DNA of 61,906 bases, the filler included, from Rhabdomonas costata (taxonomy: Eukaryota), in assembly GCA_019059605.1 (NCBI GenBank). It is 19 parts of 19 records of this genome, joined end to end, with 100 filler letters (N's around TTAATTAATTAA, not from the genome) between each part and the next. Parts side by side here need not be neighbours in the genome. Positions count along the whole stretch, not along the records: positions 1 to 3,166 come from JAHMHO010001243.1; 18 more parts are not named here. One strand, given 5' to 3'. A model generated the notes under the pieces. The model was given only the letters and a program-made list of their open reading frames with translations. It ran no database searches and was not told the origin of the DNA. Positions 1 to 48,700 of the stretch are shown piece after piece; the stretch's first letter is position 1, and each line of letters begins with the position of its first letter. Made by a program: the position numbers and the translations under genes.

Positions 1-442
1 TTTTCTCAAGCATACCATTTTTTCCGCTAGTGGTTTTCCGGAAAAGGATGCTAGTGGCTGTAAGCTGGCATTTTCGAACTGTCGGTGTTCGGTGAGATTG
101 GGTTTGTCTATAACAGTTTTCATTCTTTAGGCGGTAGCACCTGATCGTACGGGGATCGCATTCATTTTAGTATGGTGAAAGACTCAAACGCTGTGATATG
201 AAATTTGTCTGGGGGCTTGGCTCCCAGGACCCGCGGCTTGTGTTATACTTTGCCACGAAGACTAGTAGGTTACGTCCCGGCCTCAGGCGTCACCTCCTGC
301 CGCTCCGTGTACTGGCTTGATGATCCCGCTGGCCTTAACGTTAATTTGTTTGACCTCGCACACACGAAACAAAATGTACCTCTACCTGGAGGGGAGTCTG
401 TAGGGAGCGGTTGGGCATCTGTGCTCCACTTTTTTTTTGTAG

Positions 443-1466
443 GATGGCCATGAGCTGCTGCGCTTGCAGACAACTGCACAGTATGATCCTTTCCGCTCGA
501 TGGTCAACAAGGGATGGCGCTACTTCACTGTCGGTGTGCATGTTGTGGTTGTTGGAACCGATGGTTGCTCTCAGCGAAAGTTACATTTGTAGAAAGGTGG
601 GCGGGACAGAACCGTCCCCCCCTCCTCCACAACCGTGTTGTCTTTTGCAGTTGGTTGGAGGGGACATGTTTGTGTTTGCCTCCCTCCCCACTTTGGTTTT
701 TCTCCTTTCGCACACCTCTCCTTGTAAAGGAAACACCCACGTTTCTCCCACTTCCAGGGTTTCGTGGCGTTGTTTCGTGCTCCTCTGTATCTGTGTCGTG
801 GACCAAGTTTGAGAACACTGTTGTTCCGTTTTGTTATCGTTTCCCTCGTCCACTCCGTCTCTGCACGAAATCAAATCCTTTTTCTGAAGAAACGCGTATT
901 TCTCTGCTCTCCCCACTTGTGTTTTGTCTTCTACCAACGGGTGCACACCGTCCTCCATAGTATGTAATTCCCAAGGTGATCATCAAGAGTATTCATGCCG
1001 CGGTCGTCGGTATGGGATGGAACTGTAGCTTCTCAGCCTGACGTCCCTGTTCAGGATGAATCGTTACCAGTGAATTCGATTTTCGTGTGCTGATTTGTGA
1101 TCGTTGTGGTTGGGTTGGGTGTGTCACCCCACCGAGTAGGGTGTAAGTTGATGTTCGGCGTTGATTGGTACGCTCACTGTCATCCATTTGCAGATTTTTG
1201 CACCCTCCCTCTCCCGGGTCTTCTTTACAGGGTCCATTAAACCTCGAAGCTCCGGGCCCGTTACAGTGCGAATTTTGGGAGGAAATCCCAATTGGTGCCA
1301 TGGACTTCTGCTTGATGAGCTGACCTTCTCCGACGCATGGCTGCCTTGGGAGGCGGCTAAGCCAGTCTGGGAGGGGCTCTACTGCAGTAACAGTTCCCTG
1401 TACAAACTTGTTCCGGACATTCTTCGAATAATTTTAGGCTTCCTCGCCCCTGTTCCTGTGGAATGA
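443..1466 (+). CDS. PP2/Nictaba-like lectin domain protein, copy 1, last two exons (443-533, 1231-1466)
   Basis: A GT-AG phase-1 join gives ...NKGWRYFTVGSIKPRSSGPVTVRILGGNPNWCHGLLLDELTF..., matching the PP2 C-terminal motifs (GWxExxxG; WKxGLIIDGVxI). It is followed by the tail SLYKLVPDILRIILGFL and a stop. Confidence 0.75.
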
Positions 1467-2461
1467 CTAAATGCTCCATGAAGGACAATAGCACATTTCT
1501 TCATTCTGTTGCTTTTGGTGCTCTGTCGTTTACGAGAAAGAGCTTGCTGACCTGTAATTGCTGTCCGGCTTTCCTCTCTTTGCGCGTGTCTTTGTCTCCG
1601 TGATTCTTGCCATTTCCGTAGTCATTGCGACTGCGAGCCGTCTCGTCATTCGGCATTTCGAGTCAATGAGTGTTGTTACTCTGTGGGATGGAGTTGTCCG
1701 CAGTCATCCGCCGTACGTTTGACACTCTGACCTTAGCGGTGGAGTTTCCTCGCTGAGTGAATTTTTGGTGATGTTATGTTCCTAGCGGTGAGATGCTTTA
1801 TATTACATTGGCTCAACAGAAGATCAATTTTGCTTCAAATTTTTTTTTTGCTTCATTCCTTCCTAATTTTTGATACGTCTGGAATTTTGGAAAATTAAAT
1901 TTGTGAATGTAATGTAAAAGCGAAAATGGCAAAAATAAAAGTGGGGAAAATTAATTCCAACCAGTATTCGACATTGGTTCCAGTTCTAGTATTTCTGGGA
2001 TACAACAATGGTATTCGATGCAGCGCAGCCACCAGAAAACTCCACAAGGACGAGAGGATGTCGTGGTGCTAGTGTGGGGTATTGAGTATGGCATTGACAT
2101 TCAACATCTCCTTCAAAGTTGTCCAATCATACTCCCGAAGGCCGAGGGTGTGGATCACAAAAACGGGCTAATGAGTTAATGGGTAGTGGGACTGCTGCCA
2201 TCGTTGCTGGCGAATGTCCTGCAAACCGAGCTGTCAGGTCGATGCCCCATTATGACGGAGACCGGCTTTTGAGGCTGAAGTGGTGGATGGCTCTGCTCTG
2301 GGCGACGGGTGACCGTACCGTCATCAGGGCTGGGCCAACTTTGAGAAAGCTATTTGTACTGTGGCCAAATCTGGCTTATTCCCTCAAGAGATCTCTCCAT
2401 TGACCTCTCACTCAGGTTGCTTTCTTTCATTCTGTCAGTCTGCTGTTTATTTTCACAAAAG

Positions 2462-2876
2462 ATGCTCAGCGCCTTGCGATACCTTTTAACGGGCCCAGCA
2501 GTGAGAGGTGCGTTCCTTCGCGTGAGGTTAGCTGTGCCAGCAGCTATATGCGACATGAAGTTGTCGATTGCGCGTCTTTTTTCCCAACCCAGACCTTTGG
2601 TCTCGACGCCGAGTGGATGAAAACGCTCCGGAGAAACCTTTGCTGACCGTCAGTGTGGTGCAGAGCTTTGGAATCGTTTGGCTCAACGGACAGTATTGGC
2701 AGCGTGTGAGCACCTCGGAAAGCCCGAGGTATGGGGAGATTGCGAAGCTTCATTCTGTGTGCTGGCTGGAGCTGAACTCTCATCCGCTGACGCTTCCGGG
2801 GCCTGGGTTATACTACGTCAGTTTCCGAATGAAGCTGGAGCTCCTGAACTTTCATGCGGATTGGACTGTCTCGCAG
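2462..2876 (+). CDS. PP2/Nictaba-like lectin domain protein, copy 2, first exons (2462-2507, 2593-2876)
   Basis: FGIVWLNGQYWQRVSTSESPRYGEIAKLHSVCWLE...GLYYVSFRMKL matches the PP2 N-terminal consensus (LSITWGDxxxYWxW...EVAELxxVCWLE...YxVxFxxKL). The intron is GT-AG and phase-consistent. Confidence 0.85.
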
Positions 2877-3166
2877 GTGCTTGCAACCAGTTTTCATGTT
2901 TCGTCCTAAGCATTGCGGTATGCGCGCAGTGTTGTTTATTTGAAGGGAATATTGGGCGTTTTCTTCGTTGACTTAGGGACAGTTGTGTCTGTTTGTTCGT
3001 GTTTGTGTATGTTTGTGCGATGTAAAGACAGAAATATCGAAGTGCAGTGATTTCTGCAGCTAAGGTGGTATCAAAGAGTCTTGAAGGGGCGACTGAACGT
3101 CTTCCGTGCCTGAGTCGCCGCGTTTTTTTGCATGGCTTTGGTTTCGACAGCTGGGTAAGGTATCGC

Positions 3167-3266
3167 NNNNNNNNNNNNNNNNNNNNNNNNNNNNNNNNNN
3201 NNNNNNNNNNTTAATTAATTAANNNNNNNNNNNNNNNNNNNNNNNNNNNNNNNNNNNNNNNNNNNN
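3167..3266. other. Artificial contig-joining spacer (first of 18)
   Basis: 44 N + TTAATTAATTAA (stops in all six frames) + 44 N. It recurs at 6428, 9691, 12956, 16220, 19483, 22745, 26009, 29273, 32564, 35821, 39081, 42344, 45604, 48866, 52128, 55388 and 58647. The contigs between spacers are all 3157-3191 nt, as expected for a size-sorted concatenation. Confidence 0.99.
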
Positions 3267-17492: not shown

Positions 17493-19049
17493 TCCCAGCC
17501 CCATGATGTGCAGGGACAACCTGGAATCACCGGTTGCTGATGACCAAATCCACAAAAAAAAATATACCGAGACGAGGAAAGATTGCCAAGGTTTCTGAAG
17601 CACCTTTCTCGGAATGTACGGCAAAACTGCCCTGCAGTTCCGAGAACCATTCTCAGAAAAGCAGGAAAATGCATCTCCGAAAAAACAGTATCTTCTCTAG
17701 CGAAAGACACCTGATACCCCTAGATCCCGACAAAATGGACACTCACCCTGTCACAGGGAAACAAAGACGAGTAAAAAGCCAAATGCCCCCGCCCTTTTCC
17801 CCCGACGAAGGTTTGGCACAGAGAAAAAGTATACCCCTGCTCAAAATTGTGTTTAAAACGTGGTCCCAAAATGCAAATCAATCGCAGACAACTTAGCAGG
17901 CACTGGCATACTACGCAAAACAGTGGTTAAACGCCGAAACTGTGCAGACACACAAACGCAGGCAGAGGTGGAGGGCGTACCAGTACTCCGTTTCCTTCGC
18001 CATGCGCTTAGGATCGATTCCCCCCGCAGGACGAACTGAAAGCCACGAAAAAACTAGAGAGAACATCGACGCTCAGACAAGGGCGCGCAGGAGGGGAGAG
18101 GGCTCTGTGGAAATACCATGGTTCAACGGGAGAGATGCTTTGCTAATCAACCCTTGGAAAGTAAAATCGCCTCAGAACAAAAGAAAGCGCGAACAGACGT
18201 GATACCCAACGTTCCTTGAAAACCGAAGGGGGACAACAGAAACACCTCAAGAAACGAAAGTTTGGAGGTGTTTGGAAAACACCGCAGCTCCCCAGCAATG
18301 GTTGAGCAGATGAAGCCCACCTCTTTCCAACTCACCGGAATTGGAAAAACCATCACCTGGGTAGGGGACTCCTCTGCTGCTTCGAGACGCTGCGCGACTG
18401 CGGTTTTGAAGCTCCAGAGCAGAGTCGTAATCCCGGCGGGTCACGGGGTCGATAAGCACGTTGTAGGCGTGCACCAGAACTTGGAACTTCTCCGTGGCCT
18501 GCGCCGGGAAGCGTTCACCAATGCACGGCATGGGGATGGACCATCGAGTCAAAGAGGAGTGCAGATGCTTTGTCAACGCCGAAATTTAGTAACTCTACCA
18601 AAGTTGCGATTGCAATGCTCCGGATAAAAACACCAGCGTTTTGGTGGTGGTCAGGAGGAGTGGCGGTAGCACCCACGATTACTTTGGTGAATTTGGAGAT
18701 TATACAGATGAAAATCCACTGGTAGCATATGGCCCCAACCGCCCGCACCCTCCCAACTACAAGTGAGCACCTCAGCGCTGGGGTTGAGGTCGGGGTGGTA
18801 GCTCAACGCTAGCTGACGGAAGGCGCTCTTGATCTGCTCCACGTCGGCATCCGGGGACACCTGCAGCAGCTCGTAGTGCGTCGGGGTGCCGCCCGCAGAG
18901 GAAATGGGTGGTGTGGTGGCACGACCCCGGCGCCGCAAAATTGGGCCCCGAAGCCCGAGCCGGGCCGATGCCCGGCAAACAGGCAGCGCGGCGCCATAGC
19001 CGCCAGGGCAAGAGGCCAGGTGCAGGGCATGAGCAGCCAATTGGAGCAT
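17493..19049 (-). CDS. DnaJ (J-domain) protein with N-terminal targeting-like extension; exons 19049-18771, 18498-18357, 18035-17981, probably 17631-17493
   Basis: THYELLQVSPDADVEQIKSAFRQLALSYHPDLNPSAE|ATEKFQVLVHAYNVLIDPVTRRDYD is a complete J-domain with HPD. The leader is Arg/Ala-rich with no acidic residues. The 3' exons are less certain. Confidence 0.9.
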
Positions 19050-19623
19050 CCACAGAACACGTAAATGAGAACGAGAGAGAATGAGAAAGCTGACACGCAC
19101 AAGCAACTTGTGCGGCTGAGAAGGGACACGACAGGGGTTAGGGCAGTGGTGAGCAGAAGAACTCATAAGAGATCCCAAGCATCATTCAGCCAACAAGGGT
19201 TTTTGACGAAAACGAGACGGGCGGGGACCATGCCACCGCGAAAACTAAGATGCACCAATCGGTCATCCAATTCCATGATCTGAAATTGCACATCCCAGTC
19301 CAGTCGGCGACTCGTTGTTTCTGAAAATATCTAATGAAAGGAAGTCCAGAGCATTGTCCATTCAAAGCGATGAGCGAGCCATCCCTCTGCCGTCAGTAAT
19401 GCCATTATATGAAGCGAGTAGGCCAAAAATCAGCACCAATCTCCAGCAGTGAGTTCTCGCAGCACAATAGTCCCAAAAAACCNNNNNNNNNNNNNNNNNN
19501 NNNNNNNNNNNNNNNNNNNNNNNNNNTTAATTAATTAANNNNNNNNNNNNNNNNNNNNNNNNNNNNNNNNNNNNNNNNNNNNGCGTTAATTATTACCTAA
19601 GTTTGCCTAAGTTTGAGCAGTTG

Positions 19624-42837: not shown

Positions 42838-45241
42838 GGCTGCGGAATGCTCGCCTCTGACGACCCCTTTGTGCCTCCTCTTACTGAACTGACACGTGCC
42901 TTGCACCCTGGCCAGGACCCTGCTGTGGGCTCTAATCAGGTCTTGTGTTCCTCCATATGGAGCATTCGCCACCTTTTGCTGTTTGCTCAGAACACAGTCA
43001 ACTTTCAACGCTTCCTGCCCATCACAGGTCCTGCAGTGCCCATTTTGCACAGGTCAAGTACAATTACGTCCGAGTCGATTCTGTTGAGTGAGTGAGGGAG
43101 GGATATAGAATCACAGGGGACCAAAAATCTCCTGCATGTTCACATTACTGGAAGTGGATGCTGCAGACAATTTTTTCGAGCACTGCGCTTTCCGTCTCTA
43201 GGTATGCAGTGCGTATTTTCTTTCGCAGTTCCCGAACTTCAGCGTTTGGAGAGGCCCGTGGGATTCGTATGGGTCGAGAAGGAAGGATAGAGGTGCCGAG
43301 GACGGAGCGCCCGAGCTTGTCGCTGTGCGCCTGGTGCTTCCATTCCGTGGCACAGGCATGGGGAACGATCTTACTCTTAGCTTTTCTTTTGACATCATCG
43401 GAAGTTTGTTCTTCCTTGTGGCACTTATTGTACCAGGTCAACCGTCGATGATATCTCCCTCCAATTGCCGTTATTTGCCACTGGAATATCCAAAGTGCAG
43501 TGTGGGACAAAGCATAGCAAAAGAAGATCGTCGATTTGATCTGGGTGTTGTTTGATTTAACTGGTTCGTGGACGTGGAATTGTCGCTCAGCGTCTCCATC
43601 TCCTCGTCCTCGTCCCCCCCCCCCGTCCACCTCTATCCGCGTTGGTTATAATCAGACATAAACCAGTGCAACCAGAGCAACCAGTGCAATCAACCAGTGC
43701 ATTTTTTCTTTGAGGAATGGGTTTGAAGGACACACAAAACCACAATACGCATGGCGGGTAGATGCACGTTTGTTGCACAGAAACAAGTGCTGCACTCTTA
43801 CACGCCAAAGAAACAAAACGTGGCGAGCAGATTTGACCTTATTTAACAAGCCATCCTTCAGGCTCACAGATGCACGTTGTCCCCATCAACCCGGCCGCCC
43901 AACGGACGCCAACTCCGGAATATGACACACACCTGGAGCCCCAGCCTCTCAGTTACATTGTGAGTGCCAGCTTCCAGCATCAAAGACTACACATGTTGCA
44001 ATGCCCTGTTTAGGAACTGCAGGAAGAAGCTCATTCCGTGATACGACCTGTCTCTCAAAGAATTACTGTAGCAACAGGAACTGCGTCGATTGGACTGCAA
44101 GGAAATCACATTTGTCACGGTTAAATTGCTAATGCGATCTCGGGGAACCGGGTTTTTTGGGAAGCCAGGGGATTGTTTTTGTGGGGTGGGGTGAACTTTT
44201 TTTGCTTGGTCAAAACAGTCGCGCGATGATATCTCACGACGGTCTTCTGACCCTACTATGAGTGTATCTCTTTATTTCCTGAGCAAGCTTTTCTTTTGGA
44301 GCGGGCGAGACGCCAGTTACTGCCTCTGGTCATCCCCCACAACAACTGTTATTCTTAACTCTTACACATCGAACCAGAGATCAGCATTTGAATCCTTTTT
44401 GAATGGAATGGAAACGGAAAGGTTGTCTGCTGTTGTTCCAGTGAATTCCACCAGCAAGATTTACCGTCCGACTTCCGCCGACCTGGCCCAATTCTCCGAG
44501 CTGTGCTCCTGCTCTCGTTGCGGTGATTCAGACAATCACACTTCAGGTATCACGGAATTGGGACATTTGCCGTTCTCAAGGCGAACCGGAAGAACGTTTT
44601 CTGTTTTCTGTTTTGATGTGCTTCAGTTGTTTTACCCATGGCATCCTATTTATGCATAAGTTTTTGGGTTTTGGTTGGTGTACTTCTGGCGCGAACTACG
44701 ACTCTTTTTCAGCAGAAATGGGACTCCTCTGAAAGGGCCCCCCTATCATCTGTTTCACTTCCTCTCTCTTTTTTTCCAATGGTGTGCTTGGTTTAGACTC
44801 CCACACCACAGACATCTGCGGATCCATTTTTAGGGATGCTGGGATCCATCACCTGTAGCTTGAATTTCAGTTCAAACCTTCAATGGATTTCCATGTACAT
44901 AACTTCGAGCACGTCTGCATCACGATGCATTGCGTTTCCCTATGGTTTGCGTTTGTGGCCTGCCCACTTACCCAGCTTCCTCTTCGGTGGCCGCAAGGGA
45001 TGCCACGCGTGCGCTGATGGGCTTTGTCACCGTTGGGGGGACCTCCTATCTCCGGGGCGCAGCCGTGGGCCATGGCCTTGCATGTGCTCGCGCGGTGAGC
45101 GATTGTCTCTCCTTGGTAAAGGCAGGGGAGCCAAGGAGGCCCCCCAAGTCCTTTCCATTGGATTTGCCTTGGGGGGTGGTAATGCTGAGACAGATGACAT
45201 CTCCTGCGGTCTACTTCGCGGTTATAACCCCATTTGGGTGA
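42838..45241 (+). CDS. POP1: POP1-like RNase P/MRP protein subunit, 3' exons (42838-42939, 43229-43355, 44442-44522, 44976-45241)
   Basis: LVAVRLVLPFRGT|VNSTSKIYRPTSADL, RALMGFVTVGGTSYLRGAAVGHG and VVMLRQMTSPAVYFA* match the POP1 C-terminal domain motifs. Phases are consistent with one GC-AG intron. Confidence 0.75.
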
Positions 45242-45768: not shown

Positions 45769-48700
45769 GGATTTTGCTGAAGCGGGATATGGCGGAGCTT
45801 CACGAGAGCAGCCTGAACCGAACGGTGGCCTACGCAAACAGCTTCAACCTGCAGCAGGCCGGCTCCCTCGAGCTGGTGGTGGGCAAGAAGACAAATCTTG
45901 CTGCGACTAACATTACAGCCGTGAAAATTCTCACAAACCTCCGTGGCTGCATAGGAAGCTGTAATGGTCTTTACGTTAACTTTGAGGCACTGTCATCTGC
46001 CGTAAATGGGGGCAGTGGGCTGATGACCAGTTTGGACTACCGCGGGGTGGAAGTGTTGAGCGCGTTCAGCTACAGTGCGGCGCTGTCCGCTGCGGTAGTA
46101 TTCAAGGTGGACCTCAGCGAAGTGCAGGGTCCGCTGCTCATCCGGGTGATCATTCTGGTGTTTGCGGCCCTGGCCCTGGTCGTTGGAGGCTGCTTCATCT
46201 TAAACTTCGCGGCCCACCGGCTTCTGACCAGCATTGAGCAGACCTGGGAGAGGAGCAAGCAGGCTGTTCATGATCAGAAGGTTGTTGCCTTCTGCAGTGG
46301 TTCTAGTCTGGTGGAATCGGTGGTGTATACCCTTCTGTTGTGGCTGGTGCCATTGGGAAGGAGTTTTGTGCATTTGGTAGGTAATTAGCCCGCCCATTTC
46401 ATTGGGAAGAAGTTTCGTTTCTTGGGAGGCAACTGGCCCGGTCCATTTCTGTTTGCACAGGGATGCGATATATGTCCGATTTCGGTTGTTGGACTTTTAA
46501 AAGGAAGCGCTTTGCAATGTTTTCTGTTCAGGAGAGCTTCGAGAAGCTCATCTCCGCGCTTTACCCTCGATTTGCCTCGGAGCGGCTGTTGGCAGGCGAC
46601 ACCCACATCCACCTAGAGCTGTCAGAGGTCAGTCTTTGGATTAGGAAGAGGAAGTGGAGGTGGCTTGTTGTCCATCAGGACTTTCTGGTTTGGAAGTTGG
46701 TTCGCACTAAAACGATAGTTCTCAAACGTACCCTTCAGTTTCCAAACAGCGCTTTCTAAAAGACAGGGAACCGCGCCAGACACACGAACTTCCCGCCCGC
46801 AGGCCACAATGTTCTTCTCCGACATATGCAACTTCTCGACAATTTCCAACCACCTCCACGCCGACGACATGCTGGAGTGGATTGGGTACGTCTTTTTTGT
46901 GATGGACCATGTGGCGGACCACTACTTCGTGCACAAGATCAAGACCATCGGGGACGCCTACTTTGCGATTTCCGGACTGCCTGGGCTGGGCCCCGCCTCT
47001 GCAGAAAAGGAGGCCGAGCCGCGGGGCACTGCCAGCCTGAGGATGCTTCAGTTCGCTAGCGTGTGCTCGCAGATCTTCTCCGGGAAGTACCTGCACCCAG
47101 AGGCCGGGCAGTGCCTGCAGGCCATCGCTGCAACCTCCGCCTTGTTGAGCAAAGATCATCACCCCGTGGCGCCGAGACGGGTCAGCAGGCACAGCCGTCC
47201 CTCCGTCATCTCCTCTCACGTCAGTGGGGAAGAAGCGGAGCGGCAGCACTCGGGGAAGTGCGCGATGCGGTACGGGGTAGCCTGTGGTCCTGTGACGGTT
47301 GGGGTGTTGCAGGGGAAATGCCCCGCCTTCGATGTGTGGGGCAAGACGGTGAACCTTGCCTCCCGAATGGAGGTGTGCGTTTTTGATTTAGGAAATTGAA
47401 TGGGTGGAGAGGGAGCTGACGTTCCCCCCGATTTTTGGGTGTTCATTCTGACAGCAAAGAGATTCATGAAGGCGTCTCCAGGGAGTCCATCTCGTGCCAG
47501 GGGTGATTTGGGATTGAAGGGATTGGCGTCTCCTTCTCAGCATCCTCGCTTTGGGGTTTAGAAGTAATGCCGACCTTGCAGCTGGCATTGGCGAGATGCC
47601 GGGATACCGCCCGCCGCCAACCATGCTGTCAGTCCGAACCGAACAACAGCTGAATACGGCGAGTCCCAACAACTCCAGAGACACCCAAGCGCCCGCTCTG
47701 TGTCAGTGTTTCTTCTGCTGAATATGGCACTTCAGTGGACCTATCGCAGTGACTGCGACCGCCGAGAGAGATCTGTTGTGGGAATCACGTCACGGTCGGA
47801 ATCTCACCCCGCGCGATATCATTGCACGTTTGGTTGTTGGGTGGAATAGGGATGTTTCTGATGGCTCATCGTTGTCCTTGCTTGCCTTGCACGCACAGAG
47901 CACGAGCAAGGCAGGGGTGGTGCAGCTCTCGGAGGCCGTTTTCCACGCCGTCTCCGAACATCCGGCCAGTCCCTTCGCTTTCGAGGGTCCGCACTCTGTG
48001 GTGGCCAAGGGGTTCGGTACCGTCACGGCATACTTCATTAAGGTGTGCGCTTCCGCTTTGAATTGTGCGTTTGAGGTGAGCAACTTTTTTTTGCCTGTGC
48101 ATCTGAGGCTTGGACGATGATACTGGCCTTTCAGTGGGAAGCTGAATTGAACTGACGCGTCGGGCATCTCGGACCTTCAAGGGGAAACGTTTGACTCCCT
48201 GCAATAGGACGGTCGTCGCCTCTTCAGTCTTACTGTCGGTCAAGGGGGTGATCGGCCCCTAACCCCTAACCTTGTTTGTTAAAAGGTGATGAGCTGCGAA
48301 TTGCTAAAAGATTGAGAAGGAAGCGAGCTTATTTCTTCCAGACGGATTCCACCTTCCCACCAATTGTACAAAGAAGGCGACACAATGTGTTTCGTTTATC
48401 CCGTAAAACGAAGTGCGTGCGATCATCTGCCCGTGTTTTCTTGTATTTTTTTGAAGAGCTTCACCTGATCGCTTGTTATGCTGGCGAAGCAGGAACTCTC
48501 CGGGCTCTTGGTAGATTCAGAGCTTCAGAGGAAATGGAAGCCGCCGCTTTTTTTTTTCAAAGGTGAAAGGGTCTCATGCAAACCCCCCTTGCCTGGGGGG
48601 TTTGCTGCTGCTTTTTTCTTTTGATTTCTAGTCCACCACGGAGCGCCCTCCAAAGCCCGTGCTTTCGACGCTGGGGCTTGAGCCCGCTTTTGGGCGGTAC

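Follow-up and report, generated by a model that had tools for sequence, protein, structure and literature searches.

PP2/Nictaba-type lectins with a conserved C-terminal helical hairpin in the euglenid Rhabdomonas costata and in other eukaryotes

We have analyzed a window of 61,906 nucleotides from the euglenid Rhabdomonas costata (assembly GCA_019059605.1), the first contig of which (contig 1, positions 1–3166) carries parts of two gene copies for a lectin of the PP2/Nictaba type. The lectin domain is followed at the C-terminus by a conserved tail, predicted to be a helical hairpin, which characterizes a PP2 subfamily not described before, with members among euglenids, green algae, brown algae, and further eukaryotes. 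Contig 1 is a stand-alone contig of about 3.17 kb without genomic context, since the DNA past the linker at positions 3167–3266 is unrelated to it. Between runs of N, the sequence TTAATTAATTAA is present 18 times along the 61.9-kb window, about every 3,260 bp, with 0 occurrences expected by chance. These linkers, which carry stops in all six frames and are found at 3167–3266 and 17 more sites (3211, 6472, ... 58691), join about 19 contigs of about 3.16 kb, which seem to be ordered by length, and adjacent segments of the window are unlinked in the genome.

The four exons described in an earlier note, which was made from the DNA sequence alone, lie on the plus strand of contig 1, all of them with open frames and GT–AG borders. 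Exon 3 of the upstream copy (copy A) extends from 443 to 533 and encodes the middle of the PP2 domain (DGHELLRLQTTAQYDPFRSMVNKGWRYFTV plus G). It was located by tblastn, between an AG acceptor at 441–442 and a GT donor at 534–535. The GT...AG intron that follows (697 nt, 534–1230) is absent from P0001, the transcript-derived protein described below, and the frame meets exon 4 only when this intron is removed. Exon 4 of copy A (1231–1466, within the open reading frame (ORF) 1152–1466, also located by tblastn) encodes the final strands of the PP2 domain, including an NPNW motif with its W at 1293–1295, as well as the tail and the stop codon. The earlier note had placed the stop right after GFL, which proved incorrect, as the frame continues with APVPVE before reaching TGA at 1464–1466. 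The tail peptide (WEAAKPVWEGLYCSNSSLYKLVPDILRIILGFL, 1347–1445, plus strand), as read from the sequence, starts with a first helix, here termed the W-helix (WEAAKPVWEGLY, 1347–1382, plus strand), which was delimited by alignments and by AlphaFold2 (AF2) and has the family consensus W...RLLLLG. A short helix, SSLY, and the second tail helix, here termed the LP-helix (SSLYKLVPDILRIILGFL), occupy positions 1395–1445 on the plus strand, according to AF2 and to an hhalign comparison with an F-box profile.

The stop codon of copy A is separated from the downstream copy (copy B) by 995 nt of 3' untranslated region and intergenic spacer (1467–2461), the ORFs of which gave no meaningful Pfam match. The Pfam scan of ORFs omitted four long ones of contig 1, at 487–957 and 2621–2968 on the plus strand and at 584–979 and 996–1433 on the minus strand. 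Copy B begins on the plus strand with exon 1 (MLSALRYLLTGPAVR plus g, 2462–2507, within ORF 2345–2620), which runs from the first ATG of the open frame to the donor AGAG/GTGCGT. Intron 1 (85 nt, 2508–2592, GT...AG) follows at the point where P0001 joins ...AVG to DLWSRRR. Exon 2 (2593–2876), supported by both the Pfam PP2 profile and tblastn, encodes the N-terminal half of the PP2 domain with residues that map onto the sugar site of Nictaba, namely W at 2679–2681, Y at 2694–2696, W at 2697–2699, and V-C-W at 2757–2765. The motif IVWLNGQYW pointed out in the earlier note is indeed present in this exon (2673–2699), and its two Trp are W45 and W51 of P0001. Intron 2 starts with GT at 2877–2878 and leaves the contig at its end (2877–3166), and the next exon predicted from P0001 (DGHELL...) was not found downstream of 2876 by tblastn on the window.

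Because exons 3 and 4 lie upstream of exons 1 and 2 on the plus strand, pieces of two tandem copies are present. Contig 1 thus spans the 3' half of one PP2 gene and, after it, the 5' half of its neighbor in a tandem array, or one tandem unit that is wrapped around, and neither an end overlap nor an internal repeat that would mark such a wrapped unit was found in it. The protein of about 220 amino acids that the earlier note had assembled from the four exons is therefore not collinear with the contig. Its architecture was right, since the same order of parts is seen in P0001.

The search with exon 2 led to a single database entry, P0001 (EukProt RCo029083, 218 aa), with 99% identity. In this protein, the PP2 domain is followed by the tail, with the C-terminal end LVPDILRIILGFLAPVPVE. 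The RCo numbers designate proteins predicted from the transcriptome of R. costata, as given in the available part of the genome study (PMC8219788), and P0001 consequently reflects an mRNA. By tblastn, its residues 16–110 correspond to 2592–2876 of the window with 94/95 identical positions, residues 111–139 to 443–529 with 72% identity, and residues 136–218 to 1215–1463 with 79.5% identity. Exon 1 is homologous to residues 1–15, 7 of the 15 being identical in our own comparison. Identity to P0001 is unevenly distributed along exon 4, with 13/27 for the first 27 residues and 50/50 for the last 50. Judged by these values, P0001 is a mosaic relative of the exons in the window. The pattern suggests that three or more paralogues exist and that either the 3' end underwent gene conversion or the transcript assembly is chimeric. 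The N-terminus of P0001 is short and disordered, and no hydrophobic stretch resembling a signal peptide was seen when the sequence was read by eye; we infer that the lectin is cytosolic.

The permuted exon order in contig 1 and the mosaic character of P0001 could also be produced by an artefact, either by misassembly of a chimeric contig or transcript or by copies that are pseudogenes, and the R. costata assembly is described as very fragmented in the part of its description available (PMC8219788). We consider an artefact highly improbable, because the order of parts recurs in independent genomes: another 19 proteins of independent origin, some of them from the annotated genomes of Bryopsis and Ectocarpus, have the tail behind the PP2 domain. 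Besides, the four exons have open frames with canonical splice sites, and exon 4 alone encodes both the final PP2 strands and the tail in a single frame. The family of PP2 lectin genes in tandem is real and probably expressed.

The assignment to the PP2/Nictaba lectins was based on both sequence and structure. Exon 2 (as ORF 2559–2909) matches the Pfam PP2 profile PF14299 with an E value of 5.4e-7 (30.1 bits, cut-off 25) over profile positions 10–77 of 148, that is, over the N-terminal half of the domain, and P0001 matches the same profile with an E value of 3.5e-7 (30.7 bits). With a profile built from 19 relatives, the E value was 7.5e-11 for the sequence of tobacco Nictaba (8ad2) and 4e-4 to 3e-3 for cucumber phloem lectin. 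The AF2 model of P0001 is a beta jelly roll with a mean predicted local distance difference test (pLDDT) of 77.6 and a predicted template modeling score (pTM) of 0.68. The best Foldseek matches of this model are the phloem lectin PP2 structures 7yaq (E 2.0e-8) and 7vs6 (E 3.9e-8), as well as Nictaba (E 5.8e-7). When aligned with VIA-align, residues 30–175 of the model superpose on 7vs6 with a Z score of 15.7 and a root-mean-square deviation of 2.4 Å over 139 residues, and the Z score against Nictaba 8ad2 is 13.4. The presence of a PP2/Nictaba-type lectin in a protist, claimed in the earlier note together with a proposal to check it against the PP2 profile, is confirmed by the match of exon 2 to PF14299 and by the matches to solved structures. 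All structural matches to the full P0001 model end at residue 175–178.

In the available part of a structural study of Nictaba (PMC11632377), the primary sugar site is formed by Thr14, Trp15, Tyr21, Val39, Ala40, Trp41, Asp148, Lys149, and Trp151, and Trp15, Tyr21, Val39, Trp41, and Trp151 are given as conserved among orthologues. All five of these conserved residues are kept in P0001, where W45, Y50, V71, W73, and W162 align with them; Asp148 and Lys149 are not kept, the corresponding stretch being N-N-P. W51 of P0001 is equivalent to Trp22 of Nictaba, a residue with a role reported from older mutagenesis work. Trp22 is not mentioned in the available part of PMC11632377. Based on these aligned residues, sugar binding by a lectin of the P0001 type is a reasonable expectation.

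An exhaustive HMMER search with P0001 retrieved 57 proteins at E values up to 0.001, and a Pfam PP2 domain was found in 52 of them at E values up to 0.01 (50 above the cut-off). In the tail-bearing proteins, the last strand of the PP2 domain is followed by W...RLLLLG, a loop of variable length (about 4 to 60 residues), and, close to the C-terminus or right at it, the motif S-(P)-L-x-x-L-(P)-x-x-V-x-x-x-I-L-x-F-L. Among 16 aligned tails, the opening Trp is the sole invariant residue, the cap S-(P)-L-x-x-L is strongly conserved, and the Pro of the LP pair is present in 10 and missing in 6. A tail model matched 20 of 61 proteins at E values below 1e-10; it was built from 16 of these 20 matches and is hence circular for those 16. 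Searching by the tail alone added four more members to the family. The earlier note had staked its proposal beforehand on the conservation of the tail in homologues, and the tail is indeed kept in 20 PP2 proteins. The named tail-bearers are the euglenid Ploeotia vitrea, the green alga Bryopsis sp. (two genes), and the brown algae Ectocarpus sp. and Nemacystus decipiens, the remaining ones being Logan, ENA, and JGI records. In the databases, they are labeled as hypothetical or unnamed proteins, and no description of a PP2 domain with such a tail was found in the literature on Nictaba with F-box and algae, or on Nictaba with Euglena.

The two Bryopsis sp. paralogues (P0006 and P0009; GMH37900.1 and GMH37922.1) share one 7-Mb contig and have locus tags that differ by 22, which suggests a local duplication there too. 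Six proteins of the brown-algal type (P0013, P0023, and P0059–P0062) carry a second conserved motif at their end, (G/H)-W-(K/N/R)-V-F, after a low-complexity stretch, and P0039 is without it.

The AF2 model of P0001 places the tail helices at residues 180–191 (pLDDT about 88), 196–199, and 202–212 (pLDDT 89–94 for the latter two). Since the last PP2 strand stops at residue 175 and the tail helix begins at 180, there is no linker between lectin and tail in the model. When the tail was folded alone (window positions 1320–1463 with an alignment of homologues), the same three helices were obtained, with a mean pLDDT of 80.4, a pTM of 0.54, and a core at 89–92. The tail is, as predicted by these models, a confident and self-contained helical hairpin. 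Comparisons of the tail with known sequences and folds gave no significant relative. The tail profile retrieved only two chance-level rows from the PDB sequences (E 0.61 and 0.93), and the tail model had a best E value of 2.0 against PDB structures (Foldseek) and of 3.3 against BFVD. A wide VIA search with the tail model gave a best Z score of 3.4 to generic helical hairpins, with no F-box, SOCS, or VHL among the matches listed. For the tail of P0006, ESM Atlas returned no usable feature match and structural rows below the significance bar.

In the earlier note, the tail was likened to the first helix of an F-box or to a SOCS box. If this likeness reflects function, the protein would be a receptor of a ubiquitin ligase with reversed domain order, in which the C-terminal LP-helix would dock on Skp1 or Elongin C as a minimal F-box or BC-box, the PP2 domain would bring glycosylated proteins as targets to the cullin-RING ligase, and the tail would replace an N-terminal F-box. 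More broadly, the hairpin of the W-helix and the LP-helix would then be a new minimal C-terminal adaptor box for cullin-RING ligases in euglenids and green and brown algae, serving glycan-reading receptors of reversed order. On the evidence presented below, we consider this function, and with it the new type of adaptor box, rather unlikely.

The profile checks on the tail that the earlier note had proposed for the F-box and the SOCS box gave no match. The families compared were the F-box and F-box-like families PF00646 and PF12937, PRANC (PF09372), and SOCS_box. Neither the exon-4 ORF nor the 16 tails scanned alone matched any F-box, F-box-like, PRANC, or SOCS_box family of Pfam at E values up to 10, and no F-box, PRANC, or SOCS_box match was found at E values up to 0.01 in P0001 and all full-length tail-bearing proteins. 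What remained of the likeness to F-box helix 1 emerged when profiles were compared with each other. We aligned the N-termini of 14 PP2 relatives, 11 of which have Pfam F-box matches and three of which were picked by eye, and the last helix of the tail aligned by hhalign with helix 1 of the F-box in exact register over 17–19 columns (score 22.9, P 2.7e-4 to 4.4e-4, probability 34–42%). In the controls, the reversed tail scored 11.0, and 100 column shuffles had a median of 5.5 and a 95th percentile of 9.0, with 3 of them reaching 22.9. Scored against an F-box model of our own, the tail of P0001 reached 8.9 bits. The motif of helix 1 in the F-box is L-P-x-E-I/L-L-x-x-I-x-x-x-L. At the level of sequence, the resemblance of the tail to F-box helix 1 thus appears weak but in register. 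The arrangement with the lectin first and the helix resembling F-box helix 1 last holds for the transcript-derived P0001 too, and not merely for the exons as joined in the earlier note.

An F-box comprises three helices within about 40–48 residues; the tail lacks helices 2 and 3, and only 6 residues follow the LP-helix in P0001. We also considered a continuation of the F-box hidden past the stop codon, as splicing from a GT at 1458 to an AG at 1621 would read, in phase, into SLRLRAVSS..., which looks like F-box helix 2 at first sight. Out of 16 GT–AG splice products compared with the F-box model, the best reached 15.1 bits and was not the SLRLRAVSS product, with 9.0 bits for the unspliced tail. 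This continuation was rejected because shuffling the DNA downstream gave an equally high score in 7 of 60 cases. The frames at 1622–1720 on the plus strand, SLRLRAVSS... and ...RHFESMSVVTLWDGVV, resemble later helices of the F-box with a score within chance.

Four homologues (P0005, P0007, P0011, and P0056) terminate exactly at ...FL, the final residue of the LP-helix, and a Cul box is therefore impossible in them. The pattern S/P-L-x-x-L-(C/P)-x-x-V/I of the tail resembles the BC-box pattern. The Ploeotia homologue P0003, with SLSTLCLDVI, fits this pattern exactly, and other tails have Pro, Asn, or Val at the position of the small residue. Since the features tested, that is, the profiles and the number of helices, were not found in the tail, we place it outside the F-box, PRANC, and SOCS-box families. 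The tail may still work like a truncated F-box at the C-terminus.

The distribution of the F-box among the relatives bears on the same possibility. N-terminal F-box and PP2 proteins are among the nearest relatives, with a Pfam F-box in 11/57 relatives of P0001. When 61 proteins were scanned with our own models, 14 full and 4 partial N-terminal F-boxes were found along with the 20 tails, and the two never occurred together, neither in the 20 tail-bearers (0/20) nor in the 18 F-box-bearers (0/18), so that F-box and tail are complementary in their distribution. The named F-box and PP2 proteins come from Mucoromycota fungi, the ichthyosporean Amoebidium, and the amoebozoans Planoprotostelium and Ceratiomyxa. 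The distribution would suit a tail that takes the place of the F-box. Because the split between F-box and tail follows taxonomy, it is not independent evidence that the tail replaced the F-box. The homologue search and phylogeny that the earlier note had suggested recovered the same architecture in 20 proteins but gave a tree of the PP2 domain in which just 6 of 47 inner branches are well supported, with the tail and F-box labels clustered. This tree comprised 50 PP2 domains and left out P0002, five proteins longer than 700 aa, three fragments, P0059–61, and P0063–69.

A sister group made up of P0054 (EukProt, Nonionella stella) and P0058 (ENA) has no W-helix and ends in C-x-L-(L/F)-P-(E/D)-I-(L/I). 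In P0054, a ubiquitin-like domain at the N-terminus and a RanBP2-type zinc finger precede the PP2 domain.

Taken together, a role as ligase receptor draws on the in-register match to F-box helix 1, on the relatives with F-box and PP2 and the complementary distribution, and on the foraminiferal P0054, in which PP2 is combined with a ubiquitin-like domain and part of an LP motif. Truncated F-boxes at the C-terminus also have a precedent in poxviruses, whose ANK/F-box proteins bind Skp1 by two helices, CP77 effectively doing so by the first helix alone, as described in the available part of PMC4353913. Two of the 36 weak BFVD rows retrieved with the tail come from poxviruses, one being an ankyrin-like protein of buffalopox and the other a PRANC protein of pigeonpox (E 5.5 and 6.8). 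These rows are non-significant and merely a lead, because ankyrin repeats are themselves helical hairpins and could account for them. Several observations argue against such a role: the lack of any F-box, F-box-like, PRANC, or SOCS_box match and of helices 2 and 3, homologues that stop at the last residue of the helix, the absence of the Pro from 6/16 tails, the low number of supported branches in the tree, and the taxonomic split itself. Furthermore, a search of longer proteins with the tail profile alone, in which the best 8,000 word-sharing candidates were scored, gave 14 matches, all of them PP2-type (14/14). Being found just on PP2 proteins and on no other domain, the tail does not behave as a modular box that moves between substrate-binding domains.

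Another possible role of the hairpin is the docking of some other partner, or a function in localization or regulation, for example, as a tether to a cytoskeletal, membrane, or vesicle protein, in which case it would be unrelated both to cullin ligases and to self-assembly. The prediction of the hairpin as an autonomous unit is consistent with this role, as is the combination of a variable loop with the strongly conserved cap S-(P)-L-x-x-L, and the brown-algal end motif HW(K/N/R)VF suggests further contacts with partners. The searches of PDB sequences, folds, and ESM Atlas point to no partner or family, and past contig 1 there is no genomic context that could indicate one. We regard this explanation as unlikely.

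The reading that we tentatively favor, as a possible one still somewhat short of probable, is that the protein is a soluble lectin in which the hairpin serves for assembly or capping, as an element proper to this lectin clade, and is not a true F-box or SOCS box. It is based on the facts that the tail travels only with PP2, starts without a linker, and fails every box profile. In addition, the RLLLLG helix is hydrophobic all round when the alignment is read by eye and must therefore be buried. PP2-family lectins form dimers with dimer modes that are not conserved, according to the available part of PMC11632377, which makes an assembly element specific to one clade plausible. The lectin would bind N-acetylglucosamine (GlcNAc) or N-glycans, and the strongly hydrophobic helices of the hairpin would be buried against the jelly roll, a second copy of the protein, or both; these are the contacts that we infer for the hairpin. 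A buried hairpin of this kind would give a stable and probably multivalent lectin.

Four observations weigh against an assembly or capping element. The helices and their confidence do not change when the tail is folded without the lectin (pLDDT 89–92, vs. 88–94 in the whole protein), and the identical fold of the isolated tail means that the hairpin needs no lectin domain in the model. The range of the loop between the helices, from about 4 to about 60 residues, suits a tethered docking motif equally well. The exact register in hhalign between the LP-helix and helix 1 of the N-terminal F-boxes involves sister PP2 proteins, and the F-box and the tail never share a protein.

Of the 124 long ORFs from the other contigs of the window, 120 are without a Pfam match at E values up to 1e-4. 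A J-domain (DnaJ) extends over two ORFs at 18250–19181 on the minus strand (profile positions 1–36 and 38–63), which are probably one gene with an intron. On the plus strand, an adenylate/guanylate cyclase catalytic domain was found at 46719–47396 (E 1.3e-26), and a weak match to the C-terminal domain of POP1, a subunit of RNase P/MRP, at 44903–45238 (E 3.1e-5, 24.7 bits, cut-off 24.3).

The finding reveals a distinct and conserved architecture, PP2 followed by a C-terminal hairpin, in euglenids, algae, and further eukaryotes, and no Pfam model exists for it. If the hairpin is an assembly element, it would be a third solution to oligomerization in a lectin family whose dimer modes already differ. 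If it instead docks Skp1 or Elongin C, it would provide a second eukaryotic route that couples glycan recognition to ubiquitylation, and a family of such adaptor boxes, if true, would be the counterpart of the F-box-PP2 proteins of plants, fungi, and amoebozoans.

Among known systems, Nictaba and the cucurbit PP2 lectins (PF14299; 8ad2, 7vs6, 7w4b) have in common with the euglenid protein the jelly-roll fold, the sugar-site residues Trp, Tyr, Val, Trp, and Trp, and the lack of a hydrophobic stretch resembling a signal peptide. The spacing between the first Trp and the Tyr-Trp pair is shorter by one residue in P0001 than in Nictaba, and about 40 residues at the C-terminus of the euglenid protein form a conserved hairpin without a counterpart in the solved PP2/Nictaba lectins. 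In the available part of PMC6362431, Nictaba-type lectins are mostly confined to Archaeplastida and fungi, and the combination of F-box and Nictaba is common to Viridiplantae. The literature on these lectins is, as far as that part goes, mainly on plants and fungi (PMC6362431), whereas the present host is a euglenid.

The F-box-Nictaba or PP2-B proteins, which are the plant substrate receptors of Skp1–cullin–F-box (SCF) ligases, share the lectin domain, but the order is reversed in the present protein, and their F-box has three helices, whereas the present tail has one F-box-like helix and no Pfam F-box match. Protist and fungal F-box and PP2 proteins are among the nearest sequence relatives of P0001. 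The poxvirus ANK/PRANC proteins likewise have the substrate-binding domain first and a shortened F-box-like element at the extreme C-terminus. The present tail differs from the poxvirus PRANC by its preceding helix (W...RLLLLG), by following a lectin and not ankyrin repeats, and by being cellular and not viral. Finally, the gross layout of the SOCS-box and VHL-box proteins is alike, with a beta-sandwich and then a small helical box at the C-terminus, but the BC-like helix comes first in the SOCS box and last in the tail described here.

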